Source: Comamonadaceae bacterium
GTDB taxonomy: Bacteria; Pseudomonadota; Gammaproteobacteria; Burkholderiales; Burkholderiaceae_C
Direction: 5' to 3'
NCBI GenBank assembly: GCA_947445115.1
Contig: CANFCG010000002.1
Span: 36,204-100,203 of the forward strand
Length of the DNA: 64,000 nt
Positions 1 to 16,246 of this stretch are shown here, piece after piece. A model generated the notes under the pieces. It was not told the origin of the DNA and did not search any database. It worked only from the letters and a program-made list of their open reading frames with translations. The position numbers and the translations under genes were made by a program. How positions within the stretch are numbered: the first letter of the stretch is position 1; each line of letters begins with the position of its first letter.

Positions 1-1176
1 TTAAAAAAATGGATGAAACCCTCCCACGTCTGGCCGACGATGCTCACGCTGGGTATGCGAAGCCACGTGCAATACATGCCCAAGGGGCGCTGCCTCATCA
101 TTGGACCTTTTAACTACCCCGTCAATTTGACGCTTGGCCCGCTGGTCTCCGCTATTGCTGCTGGCAATACCGCCATCCTCAAACCATCGGAACTCACGCC
201 GCATCTGTCGGCGGTGATTTGCAAAGTCGTGCGCGAAGTATTTACCGAAGACGAAGTCGCTATTTTTGAAGGCGAAGCCGATGTGTCGCAAGCACTACTA
301 GAGTTGCCCTTTGACCACATCTTCTTTACGGGAAGCCCCATGATTGGCAAGCTTGTGATGGGCGCTGCCGCCAGACACCTTGCCAGCGTGACGCTGGAGC
401 TTGGCGGCAAAAGCCCGACCATTATTGATGCCAGTGCGAATCTAAAACTCGCCGCTAGCAACATCATGTGGGCGAAGTTTGCCAACTCTGGACAGACCTG
501 CATTGCGCCCGATTACGTCTTCGTGCATGAAAGCGTCAAAGACGCTTGGGTAGTGCTTTGCCAAGCGCAGTTAAAGAAGGCTTACGGTGAAGATTTAGCG
601 GTGCAGCAAAAGAGTCCGCATTTGGCGCACATGGTTAATAGCCGTCATACCGCACGCGTGAAGGGCTTGCTAGACGATGCCGTTGCCAAAGGCGCCAAAG
701 CCTTGACGGGTGGGGGTGTCAGCGAGAACGACTGCTTTATCCAGCCGACGTTATTGGATCAAGTGGCGAGTAACTCACGGGTTATGGACGAGGAAATTTT
801 TGGCCCCTTGCTGCCCATCATGACCTACCGCGATATCAATGACGTGATTGCCCACGTCAATGCAGGTCCCAAGCCGCTGGCGCTGTACATCTACAGCCAA
901 GACTCTGCCAACATCGACAAGGTGCTCACGCAGACAGTGTCGGGCGGTGCTTGCGTGAACCATGCACTCATGCAGTTCCTACATGGCAACCTACCGTTTG
1001 GCGGCGTCAACAACTCTGGCATTGGTAACGCACACGGGCATTACGGCTTCAAAGCCTTCAGCCACGAGCGCGGTGTTGTGCGTACGCAATTTTCTTTTGC
1101 CGCGACTTTGTTTTCGGCGGGCGAAGTACCCAAAATGGTTCGCAAGGCTTTGAAGGCGGCGTTCAAATTTCTTTAA
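1..1176 (+). CDS. Aldehyde dehydrogenase family protein (ALDH3/coniferyl-aldehyde-DH-like), 5' end cut by window edge
   Basis: The frame is open from base 1. ALDH hallmarks ELGGKSP and GQTCIAPDY (catalytic Cys) are present. Stop TAA at 1174-1176. Confidence 0.85.
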   Translation, partial: LKKWMKPSHVWPTMLTLGMRSHVQYMPKGRCLIIGPFNYPVNLTLGPLVSAIAAGNTAILKPSELTPHLSAVICKVVREVFTEDEVAIFEGEADVSQALLELPFDHIFFTGSPMIGKLVMGAAARHLASVTLELGGKSPTIIDASANLKLAASNIMWAKFANSGQTCIAPDYVFVHESVKDAWVVLCQAQLKKAYGEDLAVQQKSPHLAHMVNSRHTARVKGLLDDAVAKGAKALTGGGVSENDCFIQPTLLDQVASNSRVMDEEIFGPLLPIMTYRDINDVIAHVNAGPKPLALYIYSQDSANIDKVLTQTVSGGACVNHALMQFLHGNLPFGGVNNSGIGNAHGHYGFKAFSHERGVVRTQFSFAATLFSAGEVPKMVRKALKAAFKFL

Positions 1177-2729
1177 GTTGCAGGTCCGCGCTTGAGTGAA
1201 ATAAGTTCTTCGCTCCATCGGTCAGCGTTTCCGCCCCATCCACTGCGACCTTCAAAGACTCGTTTGACCGAAATGCCCATCTCTGGACTGATCCAAGTTG
1301 TATCAGTTTCACGGTAGCTCCAAGCGTTGATTCGTTTGTTTTCAACCTTGTACGTTTTATATGTTCCCGCAGGTACGGTCACTGTCTCAATACCAAGCAC
1401 ACGCCCCTCGGATTCCGTCCATCGTTTTTGTCCTGCGCTGGGGCCGCTGCCCAGTGTCATGCTGCTGCGGGCCTTCCATCTTTTACCAAGCTCCAATCCA
1501 TCAACAGGCAGATTGGCGCGGGGCGGATCGTAGGCGTGATTGGTTCCACCATCAATCACGCTTTCAGCATTAATCGTTAATGTGCCGCCGCCTGCAAAAT
1601 AAACCATCCCTTCGGCCACACGAAGGACGTGCGGTTTGCGGCGCAACACCTCTCGCTTGGTGTAATCGTCCGTACGGACGTATTCAAGACTGTCGCCTGC
1701 ACGCAATTTAACGACCGACGAGCTGCGCACTTCAATGCCACTTTTGTCAATAAACGACTTCGTTTTAGCTTCGTTCAACCGCCCAATCATCGCAATGGCT
1801 GATTGCGTGATGTGTCCACTCGGGTACTTTTGTACAAAGGCGTAAAAAGGATCGGCGCTCGTGCTGTCTTTAATTGTGTCCCATTCTGCCTTTTCGATAT
1901 CGAATTGCTTTTCTTTCTCTTCGTCCGTGAGTCGAATGGTTTTTTTGATGCCTGAATTAAAAACAAAATCGTCTTCTAAACTCGTCGTCTCCCACGGAAT
2001 TTGTGCGCCATTGCTGGCTTTTCGTACCGCAAAGCGCACGCGCTTGAACACGTTTTCAATGCTGGCCGTGGGTTTTTGCAACTCCTGCAGCAGATAGCCT
2101 GTGTAGAGGCCATTTTTAGAACCTATTGCACCATCCGCCGCCACATTGCCAGGCGCAGTCGCGTAAGCAAGGAATGTTCCTGTGGGCGCGTCAAGTGGAG
2201 CGAGCCCTTTGCCTGATGACGTTTTACCATCTGCAAAAGGGTTGTCACGGCAAGCGTCCAGAACCACAATATTCATACGATTCCCCGCGTTTTTAAATGC
2301 GTTCATCACCGCTTCAATATCGACGGCTTGTTTGGGTACGTCAGCGGCCGAGTTCAGTTTTGCATCCACAGGCACCATGTAATTGCGCCAATCCAGCTGC
2401 AAACCATGTCCCGCATAAAACAGCAAGCCGATGCCTTGCTTGCCACTCAAATTTCGGCCTGTGCGCTCAATAGCAATCGCTATTTGCTCTTTGCTGGCGT
2501 CCAGTACTTCAATGACGCCAAAACCCAAGTTGCGCAGTGTCGCGGCCATGTCTTTAGCATCGTTAGACGGATTCGCCAACGCCATATTGCCCGGATAGGC
2601 CGAGTTGCCAATAATGAGCGCAATGCGCACGTCGTTTGGGGCTTGGGCTGTGGCAGAGAAGGTCAGTAGACCAGCGGCGCATAGCGCGGTGGCGAGTAGC
2701 TGGTGAGGTAGTTTTTTGAGCAGCATCAT
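1173..2729 (-). CDS. Exported caspase-fold (peptidase C14) protein, tandem paralog 1, with about 200-aa unassigned C-terminal domain
   Basis: Signal peptide ...LLTFSATAQA|PNDVR. Catalytic His in FYAGHGLQ and catalytic Cys in VVLDACRDNPF. ATG at 2729 is preferred over the track's TTG at 2741 because GAGGA lies 5-6 nt upstream. Confidence 0.85.
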   Translation of the reverse strand: MMLLKKLPHQLLATALCAAGLLTFSATAQAPNDVRIALIIGNSAYPGNMALANPSNDAKDMAATLRNLGFGVIEVLDASKEQIAIAIERTGRNLSGKQGIGLLFYAGHGLQLDWRNYMVPVDAKLNSAADVPKQAVDIEAVMNAFKNAGNRMNIVVLDACRDNPFADGKTSSGKGLAPLDAPTGTFLAYATAPGNVAADGAIGSKNGLYTGYLLQELQKPTASIENVFKRVRFAVRKASNGAQIPWETTSLEDDFVFNSGIKKTIRLTDEEKEKQFDIEKAEWDTIKDSTSADPFYAFVQKYPSGHITQSAIAMIGRLNEAKTKSFIDKSGIEVRSSSVVKLRAGDSLEYVRTDDYTKREVLRRKPHVLRVAEGMVYFAGGGTLTINAESVIDGGTNHAYDPPRANLPVDGLELGKRWKARSSMTLGSGPSAGQKRWTESEGRVLGIETVTVPAGTYKTYKVENKRINAWSYRETDTTWISPEMGISVKRVFEGRSGWGGNADRWSEELISLKRGPAT

Positions 2730-2756
2730 TTTTATCCTCAATCGTTTTTTTGCAAC

Positions 2757-4310
2757 CTAAATCCGCGGCCCACGCTTATAGGTCACGAGCTCTTCGTACC
2801 ATCGGTCTGGGTTACTGTTTCCTACGCTACGGCCTTCATATTCAGCCTTCACACGTGTACCCGCTTCAAAATCTGTCCAAATGGTGGATTTTGTCCGAAA
2901 CCCCCAAACATTGATGTCGTTGTGCTCGATTTTGTAGGTTTTAAATGTTCCTGCGGGCACGATAATAGTTTCGTAAGCAAGAACTCTCCCATTTCTTTCG
3001 GCCCACCCTTTTTGTCCCGCTTTTGGTCCTGCACCAGGAATAGTGTTCACGCGGGCCTCCCACTTTTTCCCGACAGATATACCCTCAGCAGGCAAGGCTG
3101 GTAGTGGTGGATCGAAAGTAGAGCCATCACCACCTTTGATAAATTCCCCCGCTGTTGTGAATAGTACGCCGTTCGAAAAAGTCACAATGCCATCTTTGAT
3201 GCTTAAAGTCTCACTTCTGCGTCTAGAGACTGGGTTTTTTGTGTATCCGTCATATCGAATGAATTCACCAACATCGCCCACTCTGAACACTTCGGCATAG
3301 CCATTACGAATAATTTGTCCTGATTTGTCAGCTACTGCAACCGTTTTGGCTTTGTTAAATCTGTCAATAGCCGACATGGCCGATTGCGTTAGCAGTCCAT
3401 TGGGATACTTTTGCACAAAGGCAAAAAACGGATCAGCTGACTTGCTGTCTTTAATTTTGTCCCACTCAGCTTTTTCAATATCAAACTGCTTCTCTTTTTC
3501 GTTTTCAGTCAGCTTGACCACCTTTTTAATGCCTGAGTTGAAGACGAAATCGTCTTCTAAGCTGGTCGTCTCCCACGGGATTTGTGCCCCATCGCTGGCT
3601 TTTCGGACTTGGAAGCGCACCCGCTTAAACACATTTTCAATACTGGCCGATGGCTTTTGTAGCTCTTGGAGCAAGAATCCTGTGTACAGCCCATTTTTCG
3701 ATCCAACTGCGCCGTCTGCCGCCACATTGCCAGGGGCCGTTGCGTAAGCGAGGAACGTACCCGTAGGCGCATCGAGCGGCGCAAGCCCTTTCCCTGTGGA
3801 CGTTTTGCCATCGGCAAACGGGTTGTCGCGGCAAGCGTCCAGCACGACAATGTTCATACGGTTGCCAGCAGATTTAAAAGCACTCATCACCGCTTCAATA
3901 TCCACTGCTTGCTTGGGCACATCGGCTGCCGAGTTCAATTTAGCATCCACGGGCACCATGTAATTGCGCCAATCGAGCTGCAAGCCATGCCCAGCATAGA
4001 ACAGCATGCCAATGCCTTGTTTGCCGCTTAAATCTTTACCTGTGCGTTCGATCGCTTCCATCATCTTGGCACGATCAGAGTCAATCACTTCAATCACACC
4101 AAAGCCCATGTTGCGCAGTGTTGCCGCCATGTCTTTGGCGTCGTTAGATGGATTCGCCAGCGCCATATTGCCAGGGTAGGCCGAGTTACCAATGATGAGC
4201 GCGATACGCACATCATTTGGCGCTTGAGCGTTGGCGCTGAAGGTGAGTAGGCCAGCGGCGCACAAGGCGCTGGCGAGAAGTTGACGGGGTAGTGCTCGGA
4301 TAAGTCGCAT
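2757..4310 (-). CDS. Exported caspase-fold (peptidase C14) protein, tandem paralog 2
   Basis: The N-terminal roughly 290 aa are nearly identical to paralogs 1 and 3 (AQAPNDVRIALIIGNSAYPG..., YAGHG, DACRDNPF). The C-terminal third is diverged. The start overlaps the paralog-3 stop (TAATG at 4308-4312). Confidence 0.88.
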   Translation of the reverse strand: MRLIRALPRQLLASALCAAGLLTFSANAQAPNDVRIALIIGNSAYPGNMALANPSNDAKDMAATLRNMGFGVIEVIDSDRAKMMEAIERTGKDLSGKQGIGMLFYAGHGLQLDWRNYMVPVDAKLNSAADVPKQAVDIEAVMSAFKSAGNRMNIVVLDACRDNPFADGKTSTGKGLAPLDAPTGTFLAYATAPGNVAADGAVGSKNGLYTGFLLQELQKPSASIENVFKRVRFQVRKASDGAQIPWETTSLEDDFVFNSGIKKVVKLTENEKEKQFDIEKAEWDKIKDSKSADPFFAFVQKYPNGLLTQSAMSAIDRFNKAKTVAVADKSGQIIRNGYAEVFRVGDVGEFIRYDGYTKNPVSRRRSETLSIKDGIVTFSNGVLFTTAGEFIKGGDGSTFDPPLPALPAEGISVGKKWEARVNTIPGAGPKAGQKGWAERNGRVLAYETIIVPAGTFKTYKIEHNDINVWGFRTKSTIWTDFEAGTRVKAEYEGRSVGNSNPDRWYEELVTYKRGPRI

Positions 4311-5998
4311 TAGGCACCTCGTGTGATGGTCAAAGCTTCTTCAGTCCAGCGATTCGTTTGACCATTTGGTCTGTGCAGTTCAATTTGCTGCTTAATCGGA
4401 AAGCCAAAATCGGACAGCATCCAATAGGTGCTTTTGACACTTTGCCCCGTACGACTGTTTGAGATGACCTGTATTTTGAATGCCTTAAAAGTACCTGCGG
4501 GCAAGGTGATGGTTTCTAGTGCGAGTACTTGTCCCTCTTCTTCAATCCAATTACCAGCGCTGGCTCTGCGCAGATTTGTATTTTGACCTTGTTGTCTTTG
4601 GATTGTGTTGGGACGTGCATCTAAGTGTGGCCGCATGGGTAACTCGCGGCGTAGCCTCAACGTATTGATGAGTAGCACCGAGGGTGCCTCCGCGTTGCTC
4701 AATCCACCCGTCACAACTCCCACGGGTGTCATGCTGCTGCGTGAGGTCCATTTTTTGCCTACGATCAAACCATCGGCGGGTCGCATAGGGCGCGGAGGAT
4801 CATAAACATTGCCTTGCCCGCGCATGATCTCGCCTCTTGTGGTAAGTATTCCGCCGCCTGCAATGCGTACGACTCCATTGTCAATCGACACAATGCGCGG
4901 GCTTTTGCTTTTTAGCTCTTGTCCCGTGTCGTCTTTGCGTAGCAGTTCGACCGAATCACCGATACGATAAACCGCTTGGTTTACATCATGCCGAATGCCA
5001 CTTTTGTCGGTATAGGCGGTTACTTTTGCGCGGTTCAAGCGGTCAATCACACCCATCGCGCCTTGCGAAAAGAGTCCAGAAGGGTATTTTTGTACAAAGG
5101 CATAAAAATCGCCGACGTTGGTGGAGTCTTTGATTTGCTCCCAATCCACGCTTTCAGTGTCAAACAAAGTGTCTTTTTCTTCTTCGGTCAGTTTGACCAC
5201 CGCCTTAATGCTAGTTTTAGCACCCGCATTAAAAACAAAATCATCCTCTAAGCTGGTTGCTTCCCACGGAATTTGTGCTCCGTTACTGGCCTGCCGCACG
5301 GCAAAACGAACCCGCTTGAATACGTCTTCAATACGTGCGTTGGGTTTTTGTAGTTCTTGCAGCAGATAGCCAGTGTAGAGGCCATTTTTTGAACCTGCTT
5401 CGCCGTCTCCAGCAACGTTTCCTGGCGCTGTGGCATAGGCTAAGAATGTGCCCGTTGGCGCATCCTGCGGCGCTAAACCTTTGCCAGATGCGGTCTTGCT
5501 ATTGGGGTCACTAGAAAAGGGGTTGTCGCGGCACGCGTCTAGCACCACGATGTTCATGCGGTTGCCTGCCGATTTAAAGGCGTTCATCACGACTTCAATA
5601 TCGACGGTGTGGGCGGGCACATCTTTTGCGGAACTCAGCTTTGCATCCACTGGCACCATGTAGTTGCGCCAATCGAGCTGCAGGCCATGTCCAGCATAAA
5701 ACAGCATGCCTACACCGCGCTTTCCTTGCAGGTTTTTTCCTGCTTTGGCAATGGCATCCGTCATACTGGCTTTGTCGGCATTGGTCACCTCAATGACGCT
5801 AAAACCCATGTTGCGCAAAGTTGCGGCCATGTCTTTAGCATCGTTCGCAGGATTCGCCAGTGCCATGTCACCAGGGTAGGCCGAGTTACCAATGATGAGC
5901 GCAACGCGCACGTCGTTTGGCGCTTGAGCTGTGGCGCTGAAGGTGAGCAAGCCAGCAGCGCAAAGCGCGATGCAGAGCAATTGGCGCGGCAATTTCAT
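4310..5998 (-). CDS. Exported caspase-fold (peptidase C14) protein, tandem paralog 3, with Arg-rich insertion in the C-terminal domain
   Basis: Same signal peptide and YAGHG/DACRDNPF dyad. AAGAGG ribosome-binding site before ATG 5998. Carries about 55 extra residues relative to paralogs 1 and 2. Confidence 0.88.
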   Translation of the reverse strand: MKLPRQLLCIALCAAGLLTFSATAQAPNDVRVALIIGNSAYPGDMALANPANDAKDMAATLRNMGFSVIEVTNADKASMTDAIAKAGKNLQGKRGVGMLFYAGHGLQLDWRNYMVPVDAKLSSAKDVPAHTVDIEVVMNAFKSAGNRMNIVVLDACRDNPFSSDPNSKTASGKGLAPQDAPTGTFLAYATAPGNVAGDGEAGSKNGLYTGYLLQELQKPNARIEDVFKRVRFAVRQASNGAQIPWEATSLEDDFVFNAGAKTSIKAVVKLTEEEKDTLFDTESVDWEQIKDSTNVGDFYAFVQKYPSGLFSQGAMGVIDRLNRAKVTAYTDKSGIRHDVNQAVYRIGDSVELLRKDDTGQELKSKSPRIVSIDNGVVRIAGGGILTTRGEIMRGQGNVYDPPRPMRPADGLIVGKKWTSRSSMTPVGVVTGGLSNAEAPSVLLINTLRLRRELPMRPHLDARPNTIQRQQGQNTNLRRASAGNWIEEEGQVLALETITLPAGTFKAFKIQVISNSRTGQSVKSTYWMLSDFGFPIKQQIELHRPNGQTNRWTEEALTITRGA

Positions 5999-6012
5999 TT
6001 CAACCTCTTGAT

Positions 6013-7692
6013 TTAGGGTGTTAGTGTGGTCGTAAAGAGTTGTTGAGGCGAACGGTGGTTAAAGCTCGTGGCTGAAGGCATCAGCTGTCCAGCCCTGTAG
6101 TCGGCCGACCAAGTCCCCCATCGCGCATTCAACGTCGTAATCGCCGGATTTCGATAATTAAAAGTGGCGACGACAATTTCTTGATTGTGCTCGGCGCCAG
6201 CTTTCACTTGCCACTCTATCGTGCCGATGCCTAATGCTCCAAATTGAATATCAGCCTGACCTTGGAGACCCACTCTAAGTGGTAATTTCCAAAGCGCGCC
6301 GTTTTTTAATGTCACAATTTGCTCCGCAAAAAGAACTGCTAATACGCGTCCATCTGAGGCGATTTTGTCGCCCGTGCTCATCAGCGTGTACGCCTCTGTC
6401 TTTTCTGCGACTGTGACTTGAAGCTCAGATTTTTTATTGAATATTCGGTCAACCATCTGTAGCGTTCCGATGCTTTGACCTTGCGCCAGATTTGTCATGT
6501 TGACCGCTGCTTTGACGATTGCATTGGCGGCTGCGTTTGATGGGGGCGTAGCCATTGCAATGAATGGCGTAGCTCTTGCCGCCGCCAATGCCAACTCTAG
6601 CGAGGCAGCTTTTTCACGCGCCTTTGCAAGCTCTAATTCTTTGGCTGAGTCTTTTGCTGAAGTCTGCCGATCTTCTTGTGCTCTTGCGGCGGCTCTGTCT
6701 TCGCGCTCTTTAGCGGCGGCCAACTCTCTAGTCACTTCACGTAGCCTCGCCTTAGCCAATCCCACAAAAGAACCATTTGGGAATTGCTCGATATACGCCT
6801 CTAGTTCAAACGGGCGATTGCTGCTTTTGATGCTGTCCCAATACGAGAGTTCCACTGCCATCGTGTTCGGGGCCGCTTGCATCACTTGAATGGGCTGCGG
6901 CGCTGGCGTGGGTGTGAGGGCTGCCATCACAACAGGAGGACTTTTTTTGAAGTAAAAGTTACCCTCGAGTGCTGTGTTTTCCCAAGGCGTTTGCTGGTTG
7001 GCGCTGTCTTTGCGCACGTTGGCACGTACACGCTTAAAGACTTCTTCAATCGGTATATCGGACATTCGCATGACAGCAGCTAAGTGCTGGGTGTAAAGCC
7101 CGTTATTGCCCGCGCCATCGGATGCCACCGAGCCCGGCGCTGTGGAGTACGCCACTAGCGAGCCACTTGGCGCGCTCATGGTGGCAAGACCTGCTGTGCT
7201 AGAGCGCGAGCCTTTGGCAAAGGGGTTATCGCGGCAAGCATCCAAGATGAGCAAGTTGATCCGGTTTTTGGCGGTTTCCATCTTCTCGAGGATGGATTGC
7301 GCATCGACCGAATCAAACGCTACTTCGTCTTCAGCGCGAATGTCCGCATCGACCGGCACGAGATAGTTTGCGCCTTTGACTTGCACGCCGTGCCCTGCAA
7401 AATAAAACAACCCTACGCCACCCGCCTGCTTGAGCCGTTCGCCAAAGTCACGCACCAAGCGCTGCATTTCGCGCCTAGTGGCGTTCTCGGCCTTGAGGAC
7501 GGTAAAGCCTGCTTCGGTCAGCGATGATTCCATCAAGCGCACATCGTTGACCGGGTTTTTGAGTGGTGACGACTTGTAATTGCCATTGCCAATCAAAAGC
7601 GCCAAGCGGCTCTCGCCTTGAACCTGTGCGTGCGACGCAAGCGCCGTGCATGCCAGGGTTGCAATTAATAAGAGTATTCGTAGGAGATGCAT
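6013..7692 (-). CDS. Exported caspase-fold (peptidase C14) protein with charged coiled-coil linker and a distinct C-terminal domain
   Basis: Signal peptide MHLLRILLLIATLACTALASHAQ. Dyad FYFAGHGVQ and LILDACRDNPFA. A/E/K/R-rich helix AAKEREDRAAARAQEDRQ...ELELAKAREKAASLELALAAA. The C-terminal roughly 180 aa are unrelated to paralogs 1-3. Confidence 0.85.
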   Translation of the reverse strand: MHLLRILLLIATLACTALASHAQVQGESRLALLIGNGNYKSSPLKNPVNDVRLMESSLTEAGFTVLKAENATRREMQRLVRDFGERLKQAGGVGLFYFAGHGVQVKGANYLVPVDADIRAEDEVAFDSVDAQSILEKMETAKNRINLLILDACRDNPFAKGSRSSTAGLATMSAPSGSLVAYSTAPGSVASDGAGNNGLYTQHLAAVMRMSDIPIEEVFKRVRANVRKDSANQQTPWENTALEGNFYFKKSPPVVMAALTPTPAPQPIQVMQAAPNTMAVELSYWDSIKSSNRPFELEAYIEQFPNGSFVGLAKARLREVTRELAAAKEREDRAAARAQEDRQTSAKDSAKELELAKAREKAASLELALAAARATPFIAMATPPSNAAANAIVKAAVNMTNLAQGQSIGTLQMVDRIFNKKSELQVTVAEKTEAYTLMSTGDKIASDGRVLAVLFAEQIVTLKNGALWKLPLRVGLQGQADIQFGALGIGTIEWQVKAGAEHNQEIVVATFNYRNPAITTLNARWGTWSADYRAGQLMPSATSFNHRSPQQLFTTTLTP

Positions 7693-7710
7693 AACGGCAT
7701 TATTTCAGGT

Positions 7711-9576
7711 TTACTTAATCTCATCCACCCGTAGCATCGCCGCACCAAACGCATCCGAACAATGTGGATTGGCTTTGCGTGCGGCGGGATTGCTGCATGC
7801 CGCAGTTGATCCTGCTTCAGAGTTGGTCAAGAGCGCCCCCAGCTCGGCGCGGCCATCGGCGTTATTCAGTGATGCGGTGAAGGGCCCCGCTTTGTTTTTA
7901 GCCAGAGCGGTTAAATCGCGCGGACCAGCGCTGACGATGACGAGTAGCTGATCGGTGCCAGCAGGGCCTTGGGCGCGCACCTTCCAATTGGCTCTTGGCA
8001 GTGCTAGCGTTTGGCCTGCTTCGATGCGATTATTTTTATCTAAATCGTTGGGAAATAAAACGTAGAGCGATTCGTTGTCTGAACCCGCTAGCGCCACATA
8101 CACGTAGCCCGCCTTATCGGATTTAACGCTGAAATCTAAGGTGTCTTGGCCAATTTTTAGTTGTGTTTTATTAGTGGTGAGGGTGACGTTGCGCTTGCCG
8201 TCGCGCTGCTCAAATAAGCGCTTCAGCGCTTGTTCGCCCGTTAGTGAGGTAACCACTGCAACAGGGGCGGGTGTGGCTATAGCCGCAGGCTCAGAGGCCA
8301 CGACGGACGTGGCTTGCGGAGTCGGTGGTGTAGGCGTAGGGACAAGGGCGACAACAGGGACTGCTGGTGCAGTGGCAGCAATCGCGGCTTGGCTAAACCA
8401 AGCGGGTACAAAATCGGCGTTGCCTGTGAGCGAGATGTTGTGCGCTTTGTATAGCGGATCGCCAGCCATGCGGTCGTTGATCTTGGTTTGTGCACACTGT
8501 TTAATCTCCTCGATGCTGATGGAGCCCGATTTGTCCAAGTCCTTTGCGTCTCGCAGCATGCAGTCGCGCATGAACTCGGTGGCTAAACCACCTTTTTGCT
8601 CATCGTCAAAGCTGACTTCATCATTGCGCGAGCTAGAGATATGCACGATGTCTTGTGGCAGCGCCTTTTGCTCCACGGCTTCCACCATCAGGTTGCGGGT
8701 TTTAATATTGACGGGCTTGCTGCATTCTTCGCTAATGGCGGCAAATTTAGGGCGGATAGCGCCTTCGTCGTTTTTGTTGAAGATGCCGCGTGTGCGCACT
8801 GTCGAGGCATTACTAATGATGCCGCCCGAGTGGCACGCGTCGTACATCACAAACAGCTTATCGGTTTTGTTGGTAATGGGCGCAAGCAAAGTCGCCATTT
8901 CCTTATTGGGAATGGTTGCGTTGGTGGTTCCTTCGTAGGCCAACAGCGCCTCAACACAGCCGCCAGCGGCTTTGTCCATATAGCGCGTGCCGTGGCCAGA
9001 GTAGTGAATAAACACACGATCGCCATCTAGCACTCGCTCATTTAAAGCCGCCAGCGCAGCCCTGATGCCATCCGCCGTGGCTTGATCGTCTTGTAAGTAG
9101 GTGATGTTGCTGGCGGGCACCTGCATCGCCTGTGCCATTTGCGTGGCGGACTCGCGGTCAATATGCGCACCCGGCAATTGCGGGATAGAGGGTTCGCCGT
9201 ATTTGCCAATGCCAATGATGAGTGCGTGGCGATTGCTACGCGAGCCCAGGCTACGCACGCCCAAGGTCAAAGCGGTATTGCCTTTGGCCTCACGCCCTGC
9301 GGACAGGCCAGATGCTGCGGACGCTCCGGCACTCAAAGCCAGACTGCTAGCGCGAACCCAGCCAGATTTACCGCCAGCTTGCACCTGCGCCCAGCCGCCT
9401 TCAAGACTCAGCACTTGCACGGCAGAGCCGACGGCAAGCTGCGAGACAACGCTGCTACCAGCGAGTTTATCGGTGCGCATTTCGGCGGCACGGGTGAGGG
9501 TAGAGCTTTGCGCTAAGGCGTAACTGGCAAGGGTTGCAGCCAAGATGGCAGCGAGAATTTTGTAGCTTGATTTCAT
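7711..9576 (-). CDS. Exported SH3b-like / caspase-fold (C14) / DUF4384-like three-domain protein
   Basis: Signal peptide ...ASYALAQ. SH3b-like segment GSAVQVLSLEGGWAQVQAGGKSGWVRASSL. Dyad IHYSGHGT and VMYDACHSGG. EF-hand-like loop DLDKSGSISIEE. Pro/Thr/Ala linker. The C-terminal segment (GQDTLDFSVKSDKAGYVYVALAG...LFPN...AGQTLALP) resembles DUF4384. Confidence 0.8.
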   Translation of the reverse strand: MKSSYKILAAILAATLASYALAQSSTLTRAAEMRTDKLAGSSVVSQLAVGSAVQVLSLEGGWAQVQAGGKSGWVRASSLALSAGASAASGLSAGREAKGNTALTLGVRSLGSRSNRHALIIGIGKYGEPSIPQLPGAHIDRESATQMAQAMQVPASNITYLQDDQATADGIRAALAALNERVLDGDRVFIHYSGHGTRYMDKAAGGCVEALLAYEGTTNATIPNKEMATLLAPITNKTDKLFVMYDACHSGGIISNASTVRTRGIFNKNDEGAIRPKFAAISEECSKPVNIKTRNLMVEAVEQKALPQDIVHISSSRNDEVSFDDEQKGGLATEFMRDCMLRDAKDLDKSGSISIEEIKQCAQTKINDRMAGDPLYKAHNISLTGNADFVPAWFSQAAIAATAPAVPVVALVPTPTPPTPQATSVVASEPAAIATPAPVAVVTSLTGEQALKRLFEQRDGKRNVTLTTNKTQLKIGQDTLDFSVKSDKAGYVYVALAGSDNESLYVLFPNDLDKNNRIEAGQTLALPRANWKVRAQGPAGTDQLLVIVSAGPRDLTALAKNKAGPFTASLNNADGRAELGALLTNSEAGSTAACSNPAARKANPHCSDAFGAAMLRVDEIK

Positions 9577-11201
9577 GAATAACTCCTAAAAAATGCATGG
9601 GCAACATTGGCTTTTGTGATGCTGCCCTCTAACAGTGTGTAGCTGGATGCGATGACATCGCTGGGCATGCAGCTTTGCAAATGCACCAGCTGATCGATAG
9701 GGCCTGCAACCCCGACGCGGCTGGCAAGTTCTGACCAGCGCAGCTTCGCGGGCCAGCTGCTCGTGGCGTCGCCGCCCACGATGCGGCAGTCGGGCGCGTG
9801 TGCTTCTAACCAGTCGATTAAGTGATCGAGCCCTGTGTCTGCAAATGGTTTGTCGTGTGCGCGTTGTATGGGCATCACGCCGCAAACCTTATTGGGATTG
9901 GCTTGCACGGGTGCTGCTGGTAGGCCACACCAGTGGTTGCGTCTAAAATTATTCCAAGCCCTGAGGGCGGCTAAAAACAATAAAACAGCCCCTGCCGCTA
10001 ATTGCAAATCCAAAAAAACGGGAAGGATGTTGAGCGATAAGTAGCTGATGCCTAAAAGCGCACCGGGCAACACCACCAAAGCCGCGTCGAGAGAAGCAAT
10101 GCCAAAACGGCGTACCCACAAAGCCAAGCCGACGCATAGGCCAATCGCGATCAAAGCTTGAATCCAGCGCGGCACTTCTTGCACAAAACGTGCGTTCAGC
10201 GCGTTATCCAGCACCGTTGCTAGGCTTTCAACGCCCGCTTGAAAAGAGACCAACGGCGTGGGGTGAATGTCGTGCAAGCTGGGTGCTGTCGAGCCAATCA
10301 CCACAACCTTGCCTTTGAACGAAGGTACGTCCTGCTTGGGTTTGTCACCTTCTGCTTTAGCAAACACATCAGCAAAACTCATTCGCGGATACGCGTCAGC
10401 GCTCTTGCGCCAAGCGATGAGTGTGCCCGTGTCCATGCCCTGCTTGTCTAAGTTTTGCGGAATGTTAAGCAATTGATCGCGCGCTTGCACCGACTCACTG
10501 CTAGCTGCACCGATAGCCGCACTCATGGGTGTGGACTGGATGACCGAGCCGTCTGTGAGTGTTTCAAAGTAGCGATAGCGACGCAAAACGCCATCGCTAT
10601 CAGGATAGCCATTGTTAAAGCCTAAATTGCCTGCTGCGATATTGGGCAACACAGGGACGATGACTGCCAGCGTCGCGTTGGGGCGTCCTTCCTCTGGCGC
10701 TTTGACCCACAGAGTCGGCAAATCTTTGCGCGTCAGCGCACTGTGCTTGTCATTGGTGACAGGTAGTAACCTGATGACTGAGTAGTGGCTGTGCAAGCTT
10801 CGCTTGGCGGACTCGTTAAAGGCTGCGTCTCCGCCCGGGCTTAATCGGTCGGCATCGGCAAAAGCAATGTCCCACACAATAGCCAGCGGCTCTTCGCGCT
10901 CGATAAAGTCTTGCACGCTTGCCAGCGTATCGCGTGGCCAAGGCCAGCGGCCAAACTCTTTGCTCATACGGGCGAGCGAGGCTTCGTCAATATCTACAAC
11001 GACTAGTCTGGGGTCAGGTTTTGCCGCATGAAAACGATTACGTACCATCGTGTCGTAAGTGGTTTGCGAGAGACCACTAGAGACTTTGAGATAAGTCAAA
11101 TCGAGCACAATCCAAGCGGAAAAAATAACCACCAACCCCCACGTCACAGCCCCAATGGGTAGGGCCGCGAGTGCTTTAAGGGAGGCGAGTAAGGATTTCA
11201 T
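9573..11201 (-). CDS. CHASE2-domain membrane sensor with unassigned roughly 125-aa cytoplasmic C-terminal tail
   Basis: N-terminal TM helix. Periplasmic region has CHASE2-type motifs FGRWPWPRD, DSDGVLRRY and HDIHPTPL. Three TM helices follow (residues about 345-415). The tail has no recognisable kinase, cyclase or GGDEF motifs. The stop overlaps the next gene's start (ATGA 9573-9576). Confidence 0.75.
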   Translation of the reverse strand: MKSLLASLKALAALPIGAVTWGLVVIFSAWIVLDLTYLKVSSGLSQTTYDTMVRNRFHAAKPDPRLVVVDIDEASLARMSKEFGRWPWPRDTLASVQDFIEREEPLAIVWDIAFADADRLSPGGDAAFNESAKRSLHSHYSVIRLLPVTNDKHSALTRKDLPTLWVKAPEEGRPNATLAVIVPVLPNIAAGNLGFNNGYPDSDGVLRRYRYFETLTDGSVIQSTPMSAAIGAASSESVQARDQLLNIPQNLDKQGMDTGTLIAWRKSADAYPRMSFADVFAKAEGDKPKQDVPSFKGKVVVIGSTAPSLHDIHPTPLVSFQAGVESLATVLDNALNARFVQEVPRWIQALIAIGLCVGLALWVRRFGIASLDAALVVLPGALLGISYLSLNILPVFLDLQLAAGAVLLFLAALRAWNNFRRNHWCGLPAAPVQANPNKVCGVMPIQRAHDKPFADTGLDHLIDWLEAHAPDCRIVGGDATSSWPAKLRWSELASRVGVAGPIDQLVHLQSCMPSDVIASSYTLLEGSITKANVAHAFFRSYS

Positions 11202-11252
11202 GGCTGTAAAGATATGTATATTCGTTTATAGCCCATCGCTGCCTAGGCCGAC

Positions 11253-11268
11253 TCCTATGTTTATAGGA
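11253..11268. promoter_or_regulatory. Candidate operator TCCTAT-GTTT-ATAGGA, 51 bp upstream of the CHASE2 gene start
   Basis: Perfect inverted repeat (7-bp arms CTCCTAT/ATAGGAG at 11252-11269) in the 86-bp gap after the CHAT gene. The same motif recurs at 14405 and 15506. A TATAAA -10-like hexamer lies about 23 nt downstream on the minus strand. Confidence 0.55.
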
Positions 11269-11287
11269 GGCGAGTTAATAAAAGGAG

Positions 11288-14200
11288 TTACCGCCCCCCA
11301 TCCCCCACCAACGCATAAGGCGCCCAATAAGCCGGGTGTGCCGTAGCGGGGTTTGCCATGACTGTCAGCATCGCTTGGCGCAAGCTCTCCGCCTTGGCTT
11401 CTGTAGGTTTGCTTTGGTAATTTTTGAACGTTTCGGTGGTGAGCGTCATGGCACTCTCGCTATCCACCGCCCAGTGCGTGACGAGCAAGCTTCGGCTACC
11501 CGCATAAAAGAATCCACGTGCCAAGCCAGAGAGCGCTTCCTCCGCCTTGCCATCCGCTGCTGCTGTGTTGCAGGCACTCAGCACCACCCAATCCGCATTC
11601 AGTTTGAGTGTGAGTACGTCTTCTAAAGTCAGTAACGGCGCGAGCACGTTGGCTGCATCGTCCTTGGTGCCAGCCATAGCCAGTGCGGGCTGCGTGAGGT
11701 TGGGCAGGTCCCCCGCCATGAGCCCGTGCGTAGCGAATGCCACCACACGCTGCTTGGCAAGATTCCCGTTTTTGTTTTGCGCCAGCACGCTCTCACGCGT
11801 GGCGGCGCTACCGAGAATCAGATCTTTCGCAGCGTTTGCGCCCAGCGTTTTGGCAATCGCTAAAAGTTCATCGCGCGTTTCGGGTAGCTCTGGAATGTCA
11901 GCGTACTTCAGGGCGCTTTTCGGGTCTTCTTTTTCTAAATCAACGGCGGTTGCGGCGCGTGTCAAAACGACCTTACGCACCGAGGCTAGGGCAGGCTCAG
12001 TGTGAGGGGCATTGGATGCTAGTGCGATATTGAACAACGGATCACCCCAAGCCAACATGGGCTGCTCTGCTGCTTTGTGAGGGAGCGAGCGCATGGACAG
12101 CCACGCGGCAACGCTAGGAACGTGAGTCACTGCCGCTTGCTTAATAAGCCAAGACGCATCAGAAACCGCTCGCCCTGAGTCTGTCGAAGGGTCGAAAGGC
12201 TGCGTCTCCAAAACACCAAACGGAATCTGCCCCAATGCGCCGCCCGCCGCAATGATAAGACTAGCCTTGCCCGCCAAGCCTTGCTGGACGGGGCTTAGCA
12301 GCTTGGCATAAAGCTCTTGCGCAGCAGCGTGGTCAAATGCGGGACGGCGATTGGCTGGAAGCCCTGCCACATCTAGGCTGACGCGCAGACGCTTGACGAG
12401 GCGGCTTAACTCAGCATGGCTCACAGCCGCACGGTGGAAACTGCCAGCACCGTCTTTTGAGAGCGCCCACACGTACACCGCCTCATCGGTAGGTTGCAGC
12501 ACGACCAGTGCTTCGTCATTTTTTAGCCGCGCTTGAATCTCGGTGGTGGAGGGCGGTAGCGGGCGCACCAGCTTCTCGTAATCGGGGAATGTCGCTTTGA
12601 TCTTCACTTGTACCTCTGCACGAGCCCGTTCAAGTAAGGCGATGCGCTCACGCATTTGCGCAGCAACGCTTGGCAGCGGGGAAGCCGCACCGCCTGTTTC
12701 GCCGCTCAAATAATTGCGCAGACCTTTGATCTCGTTACGCGCATCTTGGTCTTGGCGCACCAAGCCAGACAAGGCCTCGTTGGATGCAGCCGCCCTCACA
12801 GCCGCGTCGCCCAAAGCCTCTTGCACAAGGCCACCACGCAGCCAATCGGCAATGCCGAGAGCGGCTACTGCGTCGGCGCTATTGACTTGTGATGCAGCTT
12901 CTAGATAAGTCGAAAAAATCATTTCGCGCAACTCTTTGCGGATGCCGACGTTCTCCAAATAGTCCACGTTATCGGGCGACATGATGTTGCGAACAGCAGC
13001 TTGCAAAAGCGGGTAGGCCTGTGCGCGTGAGTCGGGCGTGCCCACGCGCCACAGCGCCACGCCTTGAAGCCCTGATGCTTGAGCCGTAAAAAAGTGCTGT
13101 CTTATTTGCCCGTTGCTCGCTAGACCTTGCCTGTATTGCTTTTCAAGAGATTCGGCCTCAGAAGCCAATAGCGGCAAGGCCTCCAGAGCTTTGTTGTTGT
13201 AGAGATAGACTACAGCGCGGTCGAGCGCGTAGCGAACGCGAGCTTTTAAGTCTTCGTCTATGCCCGCGCTGGCGTCTAGTTTTTGAAATTCGGCTAGCGC
13301 GTCTAGGTAGCGGTGTTGACCGATGAGGGCTTTAGCTAGATCACGGCGGATGGATGTGATGGCTAGATTAGTCTCTTCATAATTTAATTTTTGAAATCTT
13401 GTTAGCGCATCTGCCCTAAGTTGCTCAGCCTGAAAAAACTCTCTTTGCGCGTATCTGTAGTCAGCAACGCCATTGATCGCTGATGCGTGATTGCTGGGGG
13501 ACATGGTGACTTCTTCCAGCAGCCTTAAATAATCACGCATCGCTGCCTCTGCTTGGGAGTATTTTTTCGTGTCTAGTAATATATTTTGCTTGTATTGCAA
13601 AGAACGGAGTAGTTGCTGATAGGCGAAGTCTTTTTGCGCTTCACCACGAACGGTCTTCAGAAATTTGGTTGCCTGCCTAGCAAAATTGACGGCTTGTTCT
13701 GCATCTGTAACCGCTGCTGTCGCTTGTCCTTGCCTCATGTTGAGTTGGGCTTTAGTCGTCCATGAATAAGCTTGTGCGCGAGCTTTATCGCGCAGCGAAT
13801 CTTCATCCATTCTTTGTGTTGGTTGTGCAAATGCGATACTTTTTTCTGCATAAGCCAGTGCATCTGAATCTTTACCCAATAAATAAAAGGCATTGGCAAC
13901 ACTGGCTGCATAGAACGCTCTTTGCTCATCAGTGGTGGATGTGCGAAATGCCTCTTGATACCAAAAATTGGCAGTGACTATGTCCCCGCGAAATTTATAC
14001 ATAGCGCCCAAGTCATTTTTATACCGCGGCACATTGGGGAATAGTTCAGTGCCTTCTTTGTTGGCGTTAAATACGGCTATCGCATCACTCAATTTGAAAG
14101 CGGCTTGCAGTTTATTTTCTATTTGCTGCCGCAATTGATTTGTTTGAGCTCGCCTATTCGTAGGCTCTGCCAAGATTGCTCGGAGCTTTATCTCTTCTTC

Positions 14201-14347
14201 GGGAGCTAATTTTTTAAAGTTTTGCGCCAACACTGTCACTTCGCTTTGCGCTTTTGCCTCGTTGGCGCAGACGAGCCAAACGGACAGCGCAATAGCAACG
14301 GCGCAGACGAAGGCGGATAGGGCGTGGCTGATTTGCTCACGTAACAT
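11288..14347 (-). CDS. Exported (or membrane-anchored) TPR-repeat CHAT-domain protease-like protein
   Basis: Start is placed at ATG 14347 (MLREQISHALSAFVCAVAIALSVWLVCANEAKA|Q), which gives a signal peptide or signal anchor. A long helical TPR-like N-terminal region follows. The C-terminal CHAT domain has VAFATHGL (His) and DWVVLSACNTA (Cys). Confidence 0.8.
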   Translation of the reverse strand: MLREQISHALSAFVCAVAIALSVWLVCANEAKAQSEVTVLAQNFKKLAPEEEIKLRAILAEPTNRRAQTNQLRQQIENKLQAAFKLSDAIAVFNANKEGTELFPNVPRYKNDLGAMYKFRGDIVTANFWYQEAFRTSTTDEQRAFYAASVANAFYLLGKDSDALAYAEKSIAFAQPTQRMDEDSLRDKARAQAYSWTTKAQLNMRQGQATAAVTDAEQAVNFARQATKFLKTVRGEAQKDFAYQQLLRSLQYKQNILLDTKKYSQAEAAMRDYLRLLEEVTMSPSNHASAINGVADYRYAQREFFQAEQLRADALTRFQKLNYEETNLAITSIRRDLAKALIGQHRYLDALAEFQKLDASAGIDEDLKARVRYALDRAVVYLYNNKALEALPLLASEAESLEKQYRQGLASNGQIRQHFFTAQASGLQGVALWRVGTPDSRAQAYPLLQAAVRNIMSPDNVDYLENVGIRKELREMIFSTYLEAASQVNSADAVAALGIADWLRGGLVQEALGDAAVRAAASNEALSGLVRQDQDARNEIKGLRNYLSGETGGAASPLPSVAAQMRERIALLERARAEVQVKIKATFPDYEKLVRPLPPSTTEIQARLKNDEALVVLQPTDEAVYVWALSKDGAGSFHRAAVSHAELSRLVKRLRVSLDVAGLPANRRPAFDHAAAQELYAKLLSPVQQGLAGKASLIIAAGGALGQIPFGVLETQPFDPSTDSGRAVSDASWLIKQAAVTHVPSVAAWLSMRSLPHKAAEQPMLAWGDPLFNIALASNAPHTEPALASVRKVVLTRAATAVDLEKEDPKSALKYADIPELPETRDELLAIAKTLGANAAKDLILGSAATRESVLAQNKNGNLAKQRVVAFATHGLMAGDLPNLTQPALAMAGTKDDAANVLAPLLTLEDVLTLKLNADWVVLSACNTAAADGKAEEALSGLARGFFYAGSRSLLVTHWAVDSESAMTLTTETFKNYQSKPTEAKAESLRQAMLTVMANPATAHPAYWAPYALVGDGGR

Positions 14348-14404
14348 GGTGATTCTCTGTATGAATGGAATCAACATTGTTTCGCACAGCAGGTTTTTTG
14401 ACCA

Positions 14405-14420
14405 TCCTATATTCATAGGA
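14405..14420. promoter_or_regulatory. Candidate operator TCCTAT-ATTC-ATAGGA, 57 bp upstream of the TPR-CHAT gene start
   Basis: Perfect inverted repeat in the 86-bp gap between the OmpA-like stop (14434) and CHAT ATG (14347). 18 nt (CATCCTATATTCATAGGA) are identical to the copy at 15504-15521. Confidence 0.55.
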
Positions 14421-14433
14421 GGCGCACTGCCAA

Positions 14434-14976
14434 TCACTGCAAATTCACAATCTTCACGCGGCGGTTTTCTGCTGCTAGTGGATCGGTGGTGTTGGCGGGA
14501 TCGCTTGATCCTTTGCCCGCAGACGAGAGGCGTGTGCCGTCTACGCCTTTGCTGACTAAGAATTCGCGCACGCTATCAGCTCTGTGCTGCGACAGGCGCT
14601 GGTTGTAGTCTGCTTTGCCTTTAGCATCAGTGTGACCCTCAATGACAAATTTGGCCTCTAACAAGTCTTTGGATTGCATGGCTGCAGCCAAGTTTGCTAA
14701 GGATTCTTTGCTTTCAATTTTGACGCTGGCGGAGTTGAAATCGAATTGGATTTGCAGCGAGAGTGAGGCTTTTTCTGTAGCAATGACTTCTTGCGCTGTT
14801 GCCACATCGACGGTGAGATTGCGCACGCCGCTGAGGCTACGGGTGCGCGCCGCTGCGGGATAAGCGGTGCTAGCTGGCTTGGCTTTGAGCTGCTCAATCA
14901 TTTGTTCAGGCGTGGGCGTTTGCGCAAAAGCCGTTTGGCCTAGCAGAGCTAAGAAAAGTGTAGCTAGGGTTTTCAT
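14434..14976 (-). CDS. OmpA-family (peptidoglycan-binding OmpA_C-like) periplasmic protein
   Basis: Signal peptide MKTLATLFLALLGQTAFAQ. The C-terminal OmpA-like motif is IEGHTDAKGKADYNQRLSQHRADSVREFLVSKGV...RRV. ATG 14976 is preferred over the track's GTG 14985. Confidence 0.8.
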   Translation of the reverse strand: MKTLATLFLALLGQTAFAQTPTPEQMIEQLKAKPASTAYPAAARTRSLSGVRNLTVDVATAQEVIATEKASLSLQIQFDFNSASVKIESKESLANLAAAMQSKDLLEAKFVIEGHTDAKGKADYNQRLSQHRADSVREFLVSKGVDGTRLSSAGKGSSDPANTTDPLAAENRRVKIVNLQ

Positions 14977-14981
14977 AAGGG

Positions 14982-15461
14982 TCACTTCTTTCGTTCTGTA
15001 AAGATGATTTTGTCAATCAAACGCTCGCCTTTGTCGTCTATTTTTAACAGAAGCTCCGCATCGTATTGATTGGCTGATTTGTGCAGATCATGTGCATTAA
15101 TGGCTTTAGTGGCGCGGGTTGTATTCCAAATGCCACTGATTAATGAGAGCAATAGCAATGGATTTTTTGCTGCGACCGTACTCTTTGGTGGCGTAACCGT
15201 GACCTTGCCACCACCCGACTCAACCGATTGCAGCCATGTTTGGATGCGCGGCGGAATGGAGGTTGCCGTTGTGGCATTCATCACCGCCACATCAACGACG
15301 GGCAAACTGGCGGCAAGCGATGCATTGAGCGAGTGGTCAAAACCATCGAGATCAATAAACTCTAAGTGGGGCTTCGCCTCTATCGTCGAGGCTGACGGGC
15401 TGGCGCAGGCAGTAAGGAATGCGGCAAGGCTAATAGCCAATAAAGTGAATGCGTGTTTCAT
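14982..15461 (-). CDS. Hypothetical lipoprotein (first gene of the lipoprotein/OmpA-like pair)
   Basis: Lipobox AFLTAC after an N-terminal hydrophobic stretch. I recognise no family. It is tightly linked to the OmpA-like gene (stop 14982-14984, next ATG 14976). Confidence 0.6.
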   Translation of the reverse strand: MKHAFTLLAISLAAFLTACASPSASTIEAKPHLEFIDLDGFDHSLNASLAASLPVVDVAVMNATTATSIPPRIQTWLQSVESGGGKVTVTPPKSTVAAKNPLLLLSLISGIWNTTRATKAINAHDLHKSANQYDAELLLKIDDKGERLIDKIIFTERKK

Positions 15462-15604: not shown

Positions 15605-16246
15605 ATGCACATTGCCTTGGTTGAAGACAATGCACAGACAAGGGCTCGGATTGCGCAGCTCTTGCATGCGTGCCTACCAATGGCGCAGGTGACGCAGTTC
15701 GATCGTCTGGCTGCGGCCAAGCAGCATGCTTTGCAAGCCAAATCGGATTACTGGTTAATTGATTTAGGTCTACCCGATGGCAGTGGTATCGAGTTGATTC
15801 GGGCGGTGCGAGCTGAGGATGCTACGGCGCACATCTTGGTGATTTCGGTATTTGGCGATGTGGATAACGTGGTTGGCAGCATTCAAGCGGGTGCGAATGG
15901 CTATTTGCTCAAAGACGCGGTGGATACGGACTTATCAGGTGCAATGGCCGCGATGGAGCTGGGGGGCACGCCGCTCTCGCCCATGATTGCGAGTCGCTTG
16001 CTGGAGACCATGATGCCCGCCAAGCCAAGTGCAGTACGGCCTACACCAGTGCCTATTTTGACGCCCAAAGAGGCGGAGCTACTTAATTTACTCTCTCGTG
16101 GTTATACCTACGCCGAGTCGGCCGAGCTGATGGCGGTGGCCATTTCGACCGTGCAAACGCATGTGCGCGGCATTTATGCCAAGCTGGCCGTAGGTTCTAA
16201 AGCCGAGGCGGTGTTTGAAGCCAAGGTACTAGGGCTCTTGGCATGA
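15605..16246 (+). CDS. NarL/LuxR-family response regulator (receiver + LuxR-type HTH)
   Basis: Receiver domain with the phospho-acceptor context WLIDLGLPDGSG. C-terminal HTH LTPKEAELLNLLSRGYTYAESAELMAVAISTVQTHVRGIYAKL. Confidence 0.88.
   Translation: MHIALVEDNAQTRARIAQLLHACLPMAQVTQFDRLAAAKQHALQAKSDYWLIDLGLPDGSGIELIRAVRAEDATAHILVISVFGDVDNVVGSIQAGANGYLLKDAVDTDLSGAMAAMELGGTPLSPMIASRLLETMMPAKPSAVRPTPVPILTPKEAELLNLLSRGYTYAESAELMAVAISTVQTHVRGIYAKLAVGSKAEAVFEAKVLGLLA

Follow-up and report, generated by a model that had tools for sequence, protein, structure and literature searches.

We analysed a 64,000-nucleotide stretch of contig CANFCG010000002.1 from a Comamonadaceae bacterium (hereafter the window), whose minus strand carries three head-to-tail caspase-like genes, with C upstream, followed by B and then A. 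Gene A (1173–2729, 518 residues) encodes a predicted exported caspase-like protease followed by a DUF3108-like barrel, and B (2757–4310, minus strand, 517 residues) and C (4310–5998, minus strand, 562 residues) are its paralogues. The listed open reading frame (ORF) of A extends to a TTG at 2741 (1173–2741), but the ATG at 2729 is probably the true start because a GAGGA lies 7 nucleotides upstream of it and the public call of an identical protein is 518 residues long. The parts of A lie approximately at 2640–2729 (signal peptide), 1932–2627 (caspase domain), 1758–1931 (three-helix linker) and 1176–1757 (barrel); the caspase domain, linker and barrel lie at about 3513–4208, 3339–3512 and 2760–3338 in B, and at about 5204–5908, 5018–5203 and 4313–5017 in C. 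The genes are closely packed, with a gap of 27 nucleotides between A and B (15 if A starts at the TTG) and of –1 nucleotide between B and C, the start codon of B and the stop codon of C having one base in common. A first-pass annotation of the window had described a tandem triplication of a caspase gene at 1173–5998. This description is borne out both by the ORFs and by a DNA repeat finder, which returned three direct copies with periods of 1581 and about 1700 nucleotides and 65–82% identity over the 5' two-thirds of the genes (caspase and linker), and detected no repeat over the 3' third of A, B and C. The N-termini of all three read as typical Sec signal peptides, with a basic start, the segment LLxxALCAAGLLTF and an ending of the form (S)A(T/N)AQA. 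A protein identical to B is encoded in a metagenome-assembled genome, GCA_947454035.1 (Comamonadaceae).

We aligned A, B and C codon by codon and compared protein identity domain by domain for the pairs AB, AC and BC. Identity was 76, 88 and 84% in the signal peptide, 91, 82 and 81% in the caspase domain, 72, 55 and 58% in the linker, and 46, 39 and 40% in the C-terminal domain of ~195 residues. The domain contrast between enzyme and tail, which had been seen by eye in the first-pass annotation, is real and large. The same annotation called the protease modules near-identical, which holds for the protein (81–91%) but not for the DNA, where the caspase domains are 74–80% identical and synonymous sites are near saturation. 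The proportion of synonymous sites that differ (pS) was 0.66–0.76 across all domains, with 0.66–0.73 in the caspase domain and 0.75–0.76 in the C-terminal domain. Because synonymous differences approach saturation in every domain, the copies must be old: the triplication is ancient and its paralogues have been stably maintained, so that the array is neither recent nor hypervariable. The ratio of nonsynonymous to synonymous substitution rates (dN/dS) in the caspase domain was 0.04–0.08. Since pS of 0.66–0.73 indicates no recent conversion, purifying selection suffices to explain the likeness of the caspase domains, and it is strong purifying selection, rather than recent duplication or conversion in this genome, that has kept the enzymes so alike in protein sequence. 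Because a pS of at least 0.75 makes barrel dS inestimable, A, B and C by themselves are uninformative on positive selection in the barrels, and we took barrel dN/dS from closer orthologue pairs in related genomes.

All three enzymes match Pfam Peptidase_C14 (PF00656) far above the cut-off of 21.4 bits, with 132 bits for A, 129 for B and 136 for C (E ~1e-38 in each, 3e-38 in A), as does an upstream paralogue, D (148 bits), which is described below. The catalytic His/Cys motifs YAGHG and LDACRDNPF are invariant in A–D. A full-length AlphaFold2 (AF2) model of A has a mean predicted local distance difference test score (pLDDT) of 75.5 and a predicted template modelling score (pTM) of 0.50, and places a caspase fold at residues 35–266, helices at 269–286, 292–301 and 308–320, a low-confidence tether at 321–336 and an all-beta domain at 347–513. 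The three helices agree with the helical linker of the first-pass annotation; a Pfam scan of the linker alone gave no match. Because pTM is 0.50, no fixed packing of caspase and barrel is predicted. The nearest solved relative by sequence is the caspase domain of MALT1 (E ~1e-12, ~23% identity), and a Foldseek search with the model of A also returned MALT1 (E 1.5e-11; 3v4o, template modelling (TM) score 0.71), with MALT1 and caspases 3, 6, 7 and 9 all at probability 1.0. The Pfam scores, the dyad motifs and the caspase/hemoglobinase fold of the model together assign A, B and C to peptidase family C14 (clan CD), and the array is a variant within the known but poorly understood class of bacterial caspase homologues. 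Acidic residues of the window caspases align with MALT1 D365, D462 and E500, which we take to be S1 pocket positions, so cleavage after Arg or Lys is predicted.

The window proteins share with MALT1 the His/Cys dyad and an order in which a beta-rich accessory domain (Ig3 in MALT1) follows the caspase domain. Unlike MALT1, they are bacterial, begin with a signal peptide and bear a YmcC-fold barrel on a flexible helical tether; Pfam found neither death nor Ig domains of the MALT1 type in A–C, which thus do not have the architecture of paracaspases. Scores against the NCBIfam model for the EACC1-associated caspase (NF047832) were 55–66 bits, below its curated cut-off of 140. The anti-phage models of PADLOC, including Borvo BovA, gave no full-length match, and only its generic 'caspase' model gave domain matches (E 1e-7 to 9e-18). 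A search of plasmids yielded nothing closer than distant matches to the caspase domain, annotated 'caspase family protein', and public annotations go no further than 'caspase family protein' or 'hypothetical protein'.

The C-terminal domain, which the first-pass annotation could not place in any family, can be assigned from models and profiles. An AF2 model of the A barrel, built from a 35-sequence alignment, reached a pLDDT of 87.5 and a pTM of 0.81 and has about 15 strands. Foldseek matched it at probability 1.0 to 4FVS (BDI_3050; E 7e-6), to 3FZX (BF2203, described as a 'YmcC-like fold'; E 6e-5) and to 2IN5 (E. coli YmcC; E 2e-4), with much weaker matches to RseB/MucB (E 0.09–0.5, TM 0.3–0.4), LolA and EPDR1. 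A profile of the barrel family also matches 4FVS by sequence (E 4e-4) through a (T)VPAGTF motif. Because the model, the Foldseek matches and the profile match agree, we assign the domain to a divergent DUF3108 or DUF3108-like (YmcC-fold) beta-barrel. Against the Pfam DUF3108_like model, whose gathering cut-off is 27 bits, A scored 24.9 and C 22.8 bits and B gave no match, while the homologue P0010 passed at 48.7 bits. Because the window copies miss this cut-off while homologues pass it, their barrels are best described, by profile score, as divergent members of the superfamily rather than strict Pfam members of PF21347 or PF11306. They resemble the DUF3108/YmcC-fold proteins of known structure (3FZX, 4FVS and 2IN5) in fold, in a PAGTF-type motif and in export, and differ in that the known proteins are stand-alone and ~200 residues long, whereas the window barrels are fused behind a protease.

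Word-index searches with the barrel gave 3 and 7 matches and made it look like a rare domain; an exhaustive profile search, which returned 841 cluster representatives at E ≤ 1e-3, overturned this. Most full-length proteins from the profile search carry the barrel at the C-terminus of a protein of 400–700 residues, and of 64 long homologues, 50 contain Peptidase_C14, 21 match DUF3108_like and 12 match DUF3108 (E ≤ 1e-3). The barrel of C bears an extra Q/R-rich loop of ~48 residues (window ~4480–4660, minus strand), at a position that falls in a low-confidence loop of the A model. Its orthologues L007:7659 and L009:3974 (L numbers denote related loci) keep this loop with a variable sequence, and its Arg-rich stretch could be cut by a basic-specific protease or act as bait for one. 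P0010 (397 residues), the nearest relative of the window barrels in the library of representatives, has two tandem barrels in one fragment. We also considered two apparently stand-alone barrel proteins of 173 residues, P0008 and P0009, and set them aside as probable products of split genes, each following a 280-residue caspase ORF on its contig. The metagenome contigs L002–L005 have this arrangement, in which a 280-residue caspase ORF is separated by a gap of ~190 nucleotides from a 173-residue barrel-only ORF (P0009); we suspect a frameshift or stop, and the split recurs on many contigs beside a second, intact caspase-barrel gene of 522 residues.

We scanned related genomes and mapped 78 related loci, all from Comamonadaceae or other Burkholderiales, with custom domain profiles. 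Most have one caspase-barrel gene; two copies occur in 11 loci, three in 2 and four in 1. Copy number and C-terminal variants, which the first-pass annotation had singled out for comparison in related strains, do vary among the closest genomes, with three copies in the window, L006 and L009, two in L007 and L008, and one in L010. The barrel tree sorts copies from different genomes into types that also follow their place in the array: the A-type group contains window A, L006:11596 and L010:10001, the B-type group window B and L006:9968, and the C-type group window C, L007:7659 and L009:3974, with further types found outside the window. Because the tree groups them by type across genomes, the types must predate these genomes; they are deep, distinct lineages, and the repertoire differs from genome to genome. 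For orthologue pairs with measurable dS, dN/dS was 0.03–0.24 in the barrel (0.040 for the close pair L007:7659/L009:3974 and 0.046 for L013/L016) and 0.02–0.13 in the caspase domain. Both domains are under purifying selection, and these orthologue pairs gave no signal of diversifying selection in the barrels. The orthologous groups, the barrel dN/dS and the high pS among the window copies contradict the recent or hypervariable array that the first-pass annotation implied. We also considered and rejected hypervariation by a diversity-generating retroelement: window positions 1–15000 hold no template/variable repeat pair beyond the triplication itself, although a reverse transcriptase was not sought across the whole window.

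The caspase and barrel trees disagree, and the related loci reveal how. Limnohabitans lacus (L070) and a close relative (L073) have a syntenic locus with ~95% identical flanks, and their caspase domains differ at a pS of 0.07 while their barrels differ at 0.74; third-position identity is 95–100% up to residue ~360 and ~35% thereafter. The breakpoint lies at codon ~376, where a long coiled-coil linker ends; here a 2.4-kb segment of L070 (11119–13491), comprising hairpin, barrel and a second, convergent caspase-barrel gene, is replaced in L073 by a 0.95-kb segment (4546–5492) with a different hairpin and barrel. Paralogues within single genomes show the same contrast. L021 and L027, from one Pseudorhodoferax genome, have a caspase pS of 0.13 and a barrel pS of 0.60; the L006 paralogues have 0.37 and 0.79, with the conversion tract confined to the caspase domain; and the L009 paralogues share a tract of 95–100% third-position identity at residues ~106–200, within the caspase domain. 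In relatives, then, either the protease half has been homogenised by conversion or old barrel types have been exchanged as cassettes, with breakpoints in the linker. The pattern of constant enzyme and variable tail is kept by constraint, conversion of the enzyme and cassette exchange, and rapid point-mutational diversification is not involved.

The first-pass annotation presented A, B and C as an array of three genes, and three they are, but the array is not isolated: immediately upstream, and read in the same direction, are two further caspase genes, D and E, and a CHAT gene. A, B and C are the last three of nine co-oriented, tightly packed minus-strand genes spaced by –4 to +86 nucleotides, in the order lipoprotein, OmpA-like, CHAT, CHASE2, SH3-caspase-DUF4384, caspase D, C, B and A. 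Judged from its sequence, every product of the block carries a signal peptide, a lipobox or membrane segments. Gene D (6013–7692, 559 residues) is an older caspase paralogue (Peptidase_C14 E 6e-43; 32% identity to A), with orthologues in L007–L010. It shares with A–C the signal peptide, the caspase domain and a WxxIK..YPxG hairpin, followed by an Ala/Glu/Lys-rich, coiled-coil-like stretch and a different C-terminal domain. That last domain matched no Pfam family, and hhalign rejected it as an A/B/C-type barrel (probability 0.05), so that pairwise alignment there is not meaningful. Gene E (7711–9576, 621 residues) encodes an exported SH3-caspase-DUF4384 protein, as identified by Pfam matches; genes of this type occur in 28 related loci and adjoin CHASE2 in most of them. 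The CHASE2 membrane protein (9573–11201, 542 residues; Pfam CHASE2 E 4e-47) has a cytoplasmic tail of ~125 residues with no recognised output domain. Its gene is found in 24 of the 78 related loci, and the pair it forms with E, in which the start of E and the stop of CHASE2 overlap by 4 nucleotides, recurs in about 24.

Further upstream, a CHAT-domain protease of caspase fold (11288–14437, 1049 residues; Pfam CHAT E 2e-45) has an N-terminal hydrophobic signal or anchor and a long N-terminal region of unassigned fold. A 50-residue stretch of this protein matches BovA in PADLOC (E 2e-4), and the gene is present in 9 related loci. The OmpA-family exported protein (14434–14985, 183 residues; Pfam OmpA E 2e-22) is of the peptidoglycan-binding type and has homologues in 28 related loci, where its gene mostly separates caspase-barrel from CHASE2. 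The first gene of the block (14982–15461, 159 residues) encodes a putative lipoprotein with a lipobox-like LTAC and no Pfam match. Divergent from the block, a LuxR-type response regulator and a HisKA_3 histidine kinase (15605–17370, plus strand) could regulate it. CHASE2 and/or an E-type caspase is present in 29 of the 78 related loci. In related loci the genes mostly run from caspase-barrel through OmpA-like and CHASE2 to E-type caspase. A functional link is supported by cyanobacterial proteins in which a caspase and CHASE2 are reported to be fused (PMC3501461).

We propose, with a probability of roughly 0.55, that A, B and C are an old set of exported, apparently active caspase-barrel paralogues whose barrels confer specificity for a partner or ligand, or a location, in regulated proteolysis at the cell envelope. 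The site of action of the three proteins would be the periplasm or the outer membrane, where the tethered barrel would bind a partner or ligand and so give each paralogue its own target or location. The first-pass annotation noted that a varying recognition or targeting module would produce such a pattern, which is a reasonable hypothesis; by analogy, what the barrel probably provides is specificity or targeting for a constant periplasmic protease that is predicted to be specific for basic residues. If the barrel does supply specificity or localisation, it follows that the array would be a small repertoire in which one enzyme is offered with several adaptors. It may work with the conserved OmpA-like/CHASE2/caspase-DUF4384 core, and their joint task would probably be regulated proteolysis for envelope signalling or surveillance. 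The closest mechanistic analogy, and no more than an analogy, is RseB/MucB with DegS and RseA, in which a periplasmic, ligand-sensing LolA-like barrel is likewise combined with a protease and a membrane protein. There, however, the protease is of another class, the barrel shields the substrate instead of being fused to the protease, and a sigma/anti-sigma pair is present that the window system does not have; the structural likeness is too weak for a claim of homology. A bolder extension of this proposal, which we consider doubtful, is that Comamonadaceae possess an undescribed periplasmic caspase system, in which an OmpA-like, CHASE2 and SH3-caspase-DUF4384 core, with or without CHAT, would operate with exchangeable-barrel enzymes whose barrels sense ligands or partners to direct cleavage, forming a surveillance cascade shuffled by recombination.

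Several points weigh against the main proposal. Among the 94 family members compared, the median barrel identity is 28% where caspase identity is 75–80%, and the window pairs (caspase/barrel 89/45, 79/38 and 79/37%) lie inside this general trend. The gap between caspase and barrel identity is a property of rates across the family and is not peculiar to the window array, and faster divergence of the barrel is also what a merely less constrained domain would be expected to show. The DUF3108/YmcC fold is catalogued, but we know of no function for any of its members, so the label 'binding module' derives solely from architecture and analogy. Export, protease activity and P1 specificity are all predictions. 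Co-transcription of the block is suggested by gene spacing only, and scans for promoters and terminators gave no more sites than shuffled sequence. In the sample of related loci, about 60% lack the CHASE2/OmpA/E-type core, and many of those that lack it are short contigs.

Concerted evolution alone might produce the same picture, with conversion keeping the 5' two-thirds of the genes alike while the 3' part escapes and the tails have no role in specificity. The conversion tracts in L006, L009 and L021/L027 fit this explanation, as does the third-position identity of window A and B, which is ~55% in the caspase domain and ~35% in the barrel. Yet the window caspases retain 81–91% protein identity at a pS of 0.66–0.73 and a dN/dS of 0.04–0.08, the caspase domain is 65–80% identical across the family, even between single-copy genes of different genera, and the barrels are themselves constrained; we regard this explanation as unlikely. 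The large identity gap between enzyme and tail, the different barrel repertoires of relatives and the replacement of a barrel cassette between near-identical genomes would also be expected from an arms race, in which positive selection or a targeted mutator actively diversifies the barrels to track molecules of phage or competitors. We find this reading, the strongest form of the idea in the first-pass annotation, very unlikely, given that barrel types have orthologues across genomes, that barrel dN/dS is 0.03–0.24 wherever dS is measurable, that no template/variable-like repeats besides the triplication occur within 15 kb, and that saturated synonymous sites mark the divergence of the paralogues as old.

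Instead of choosing a target, the barrel might act as a pro-domain or intramolecular inhibitor that is removed on activation, comparable to the C-terminal prodomain of legumain, or as a membrane or outer-membrane anchor. The flexible, low-confidence tether between linker and barrel in the AF2 model and an Arg-rich loop in C-type barrels that a basic-specific protease could cut are compatible with these roles, and DUF3108 proteins have been described as outer-membrane beta-barrels in one paper (PMC4364669). The weak Foldseek likeness of the barrel to the invasin beta-domain and to LolA/RseB points the same way. A pure pro-domain, however, would have no need of cassette exchange or of several types that are each conserved yet deeply divergent from one another. 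As for an anchor, the best structural matches, 4FVS and 3FZX, are a putative lipoprotein and a putative exported protein, presumably solved in soluble form. Integral outer-membrane barrels typically end in an aromatic residue, which is missing from the C-termini of A, B and C. On balance we judge a pro-domain or anchor quite unlikely. Least probable to us is that these are ordinary secreted degradative proteases, serving nutrition or antagonism, whose tails bind different polymers and whose neighbours are incidental, with no link to signalling. Export signals on all products and the freshwater, heterotrophic character of the organisms, as judged from record titles, would suit such enzymes; the tight and sometimes overlapping linkage with CHASE2, OmpA-like and E-type caspase genes across genera would not, nor would the existence of caspase-CHASE2 fusions elsewhere (PMC3501461).

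Among described proteins, bacterial orthocaspases or 'prokaryotic metacaspases' such as MaOC1 are comparable to A–C in having a Peptidase_C14 domain, an HC dyad and highly varied appended domains, and surveys of orthocaspases have noted signal-peptide-like N-termini and links to CHASE2 (PMC3501461, PMC6426788). The combination of a caspase with a DUF3108-like domain and the tandem arrays set the window proteins apart from the orthocaspases in the papers found. Our literature search found no paper on this architecture, on such arrays or on an OmpA-like/CHASE2/caspase-DUF4384/CHAT neighbourhood.

Bacteria have many caspase homologues, yet to our knowledge a substrate or role has been established for hardly any of them, and those that are exported have received almost no study. 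This family offers a natural experiment in which one protease is joined to interchangeable barrels within a conserved envelope cluster, and it is carried by cultivable relatives such as Limnohabitans lacus, Variovorax rhizosphaerae, Ramlibacter albus, Caenimonas sedimenti and Acidovorax sp. NB1. Ligands of the barrels, once found, would reveal for the first time what DUF3108/YmcC-fold domains and periplasmic caspases do, and might account for the recurrent link between caspases and CHASE2. If the barrels prove inert or act as pro-domains, the array is an ordinary expansion of paralogues.

On the other side of A, the window carries an aldehyde dehydrogenase gene (13–1176, plus strand) that is convergent with A, the 3' ends of the two genes overlapping by 4 nucleotides. 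The same aldehyde dehydrogenase neighbour is found at locus L010.

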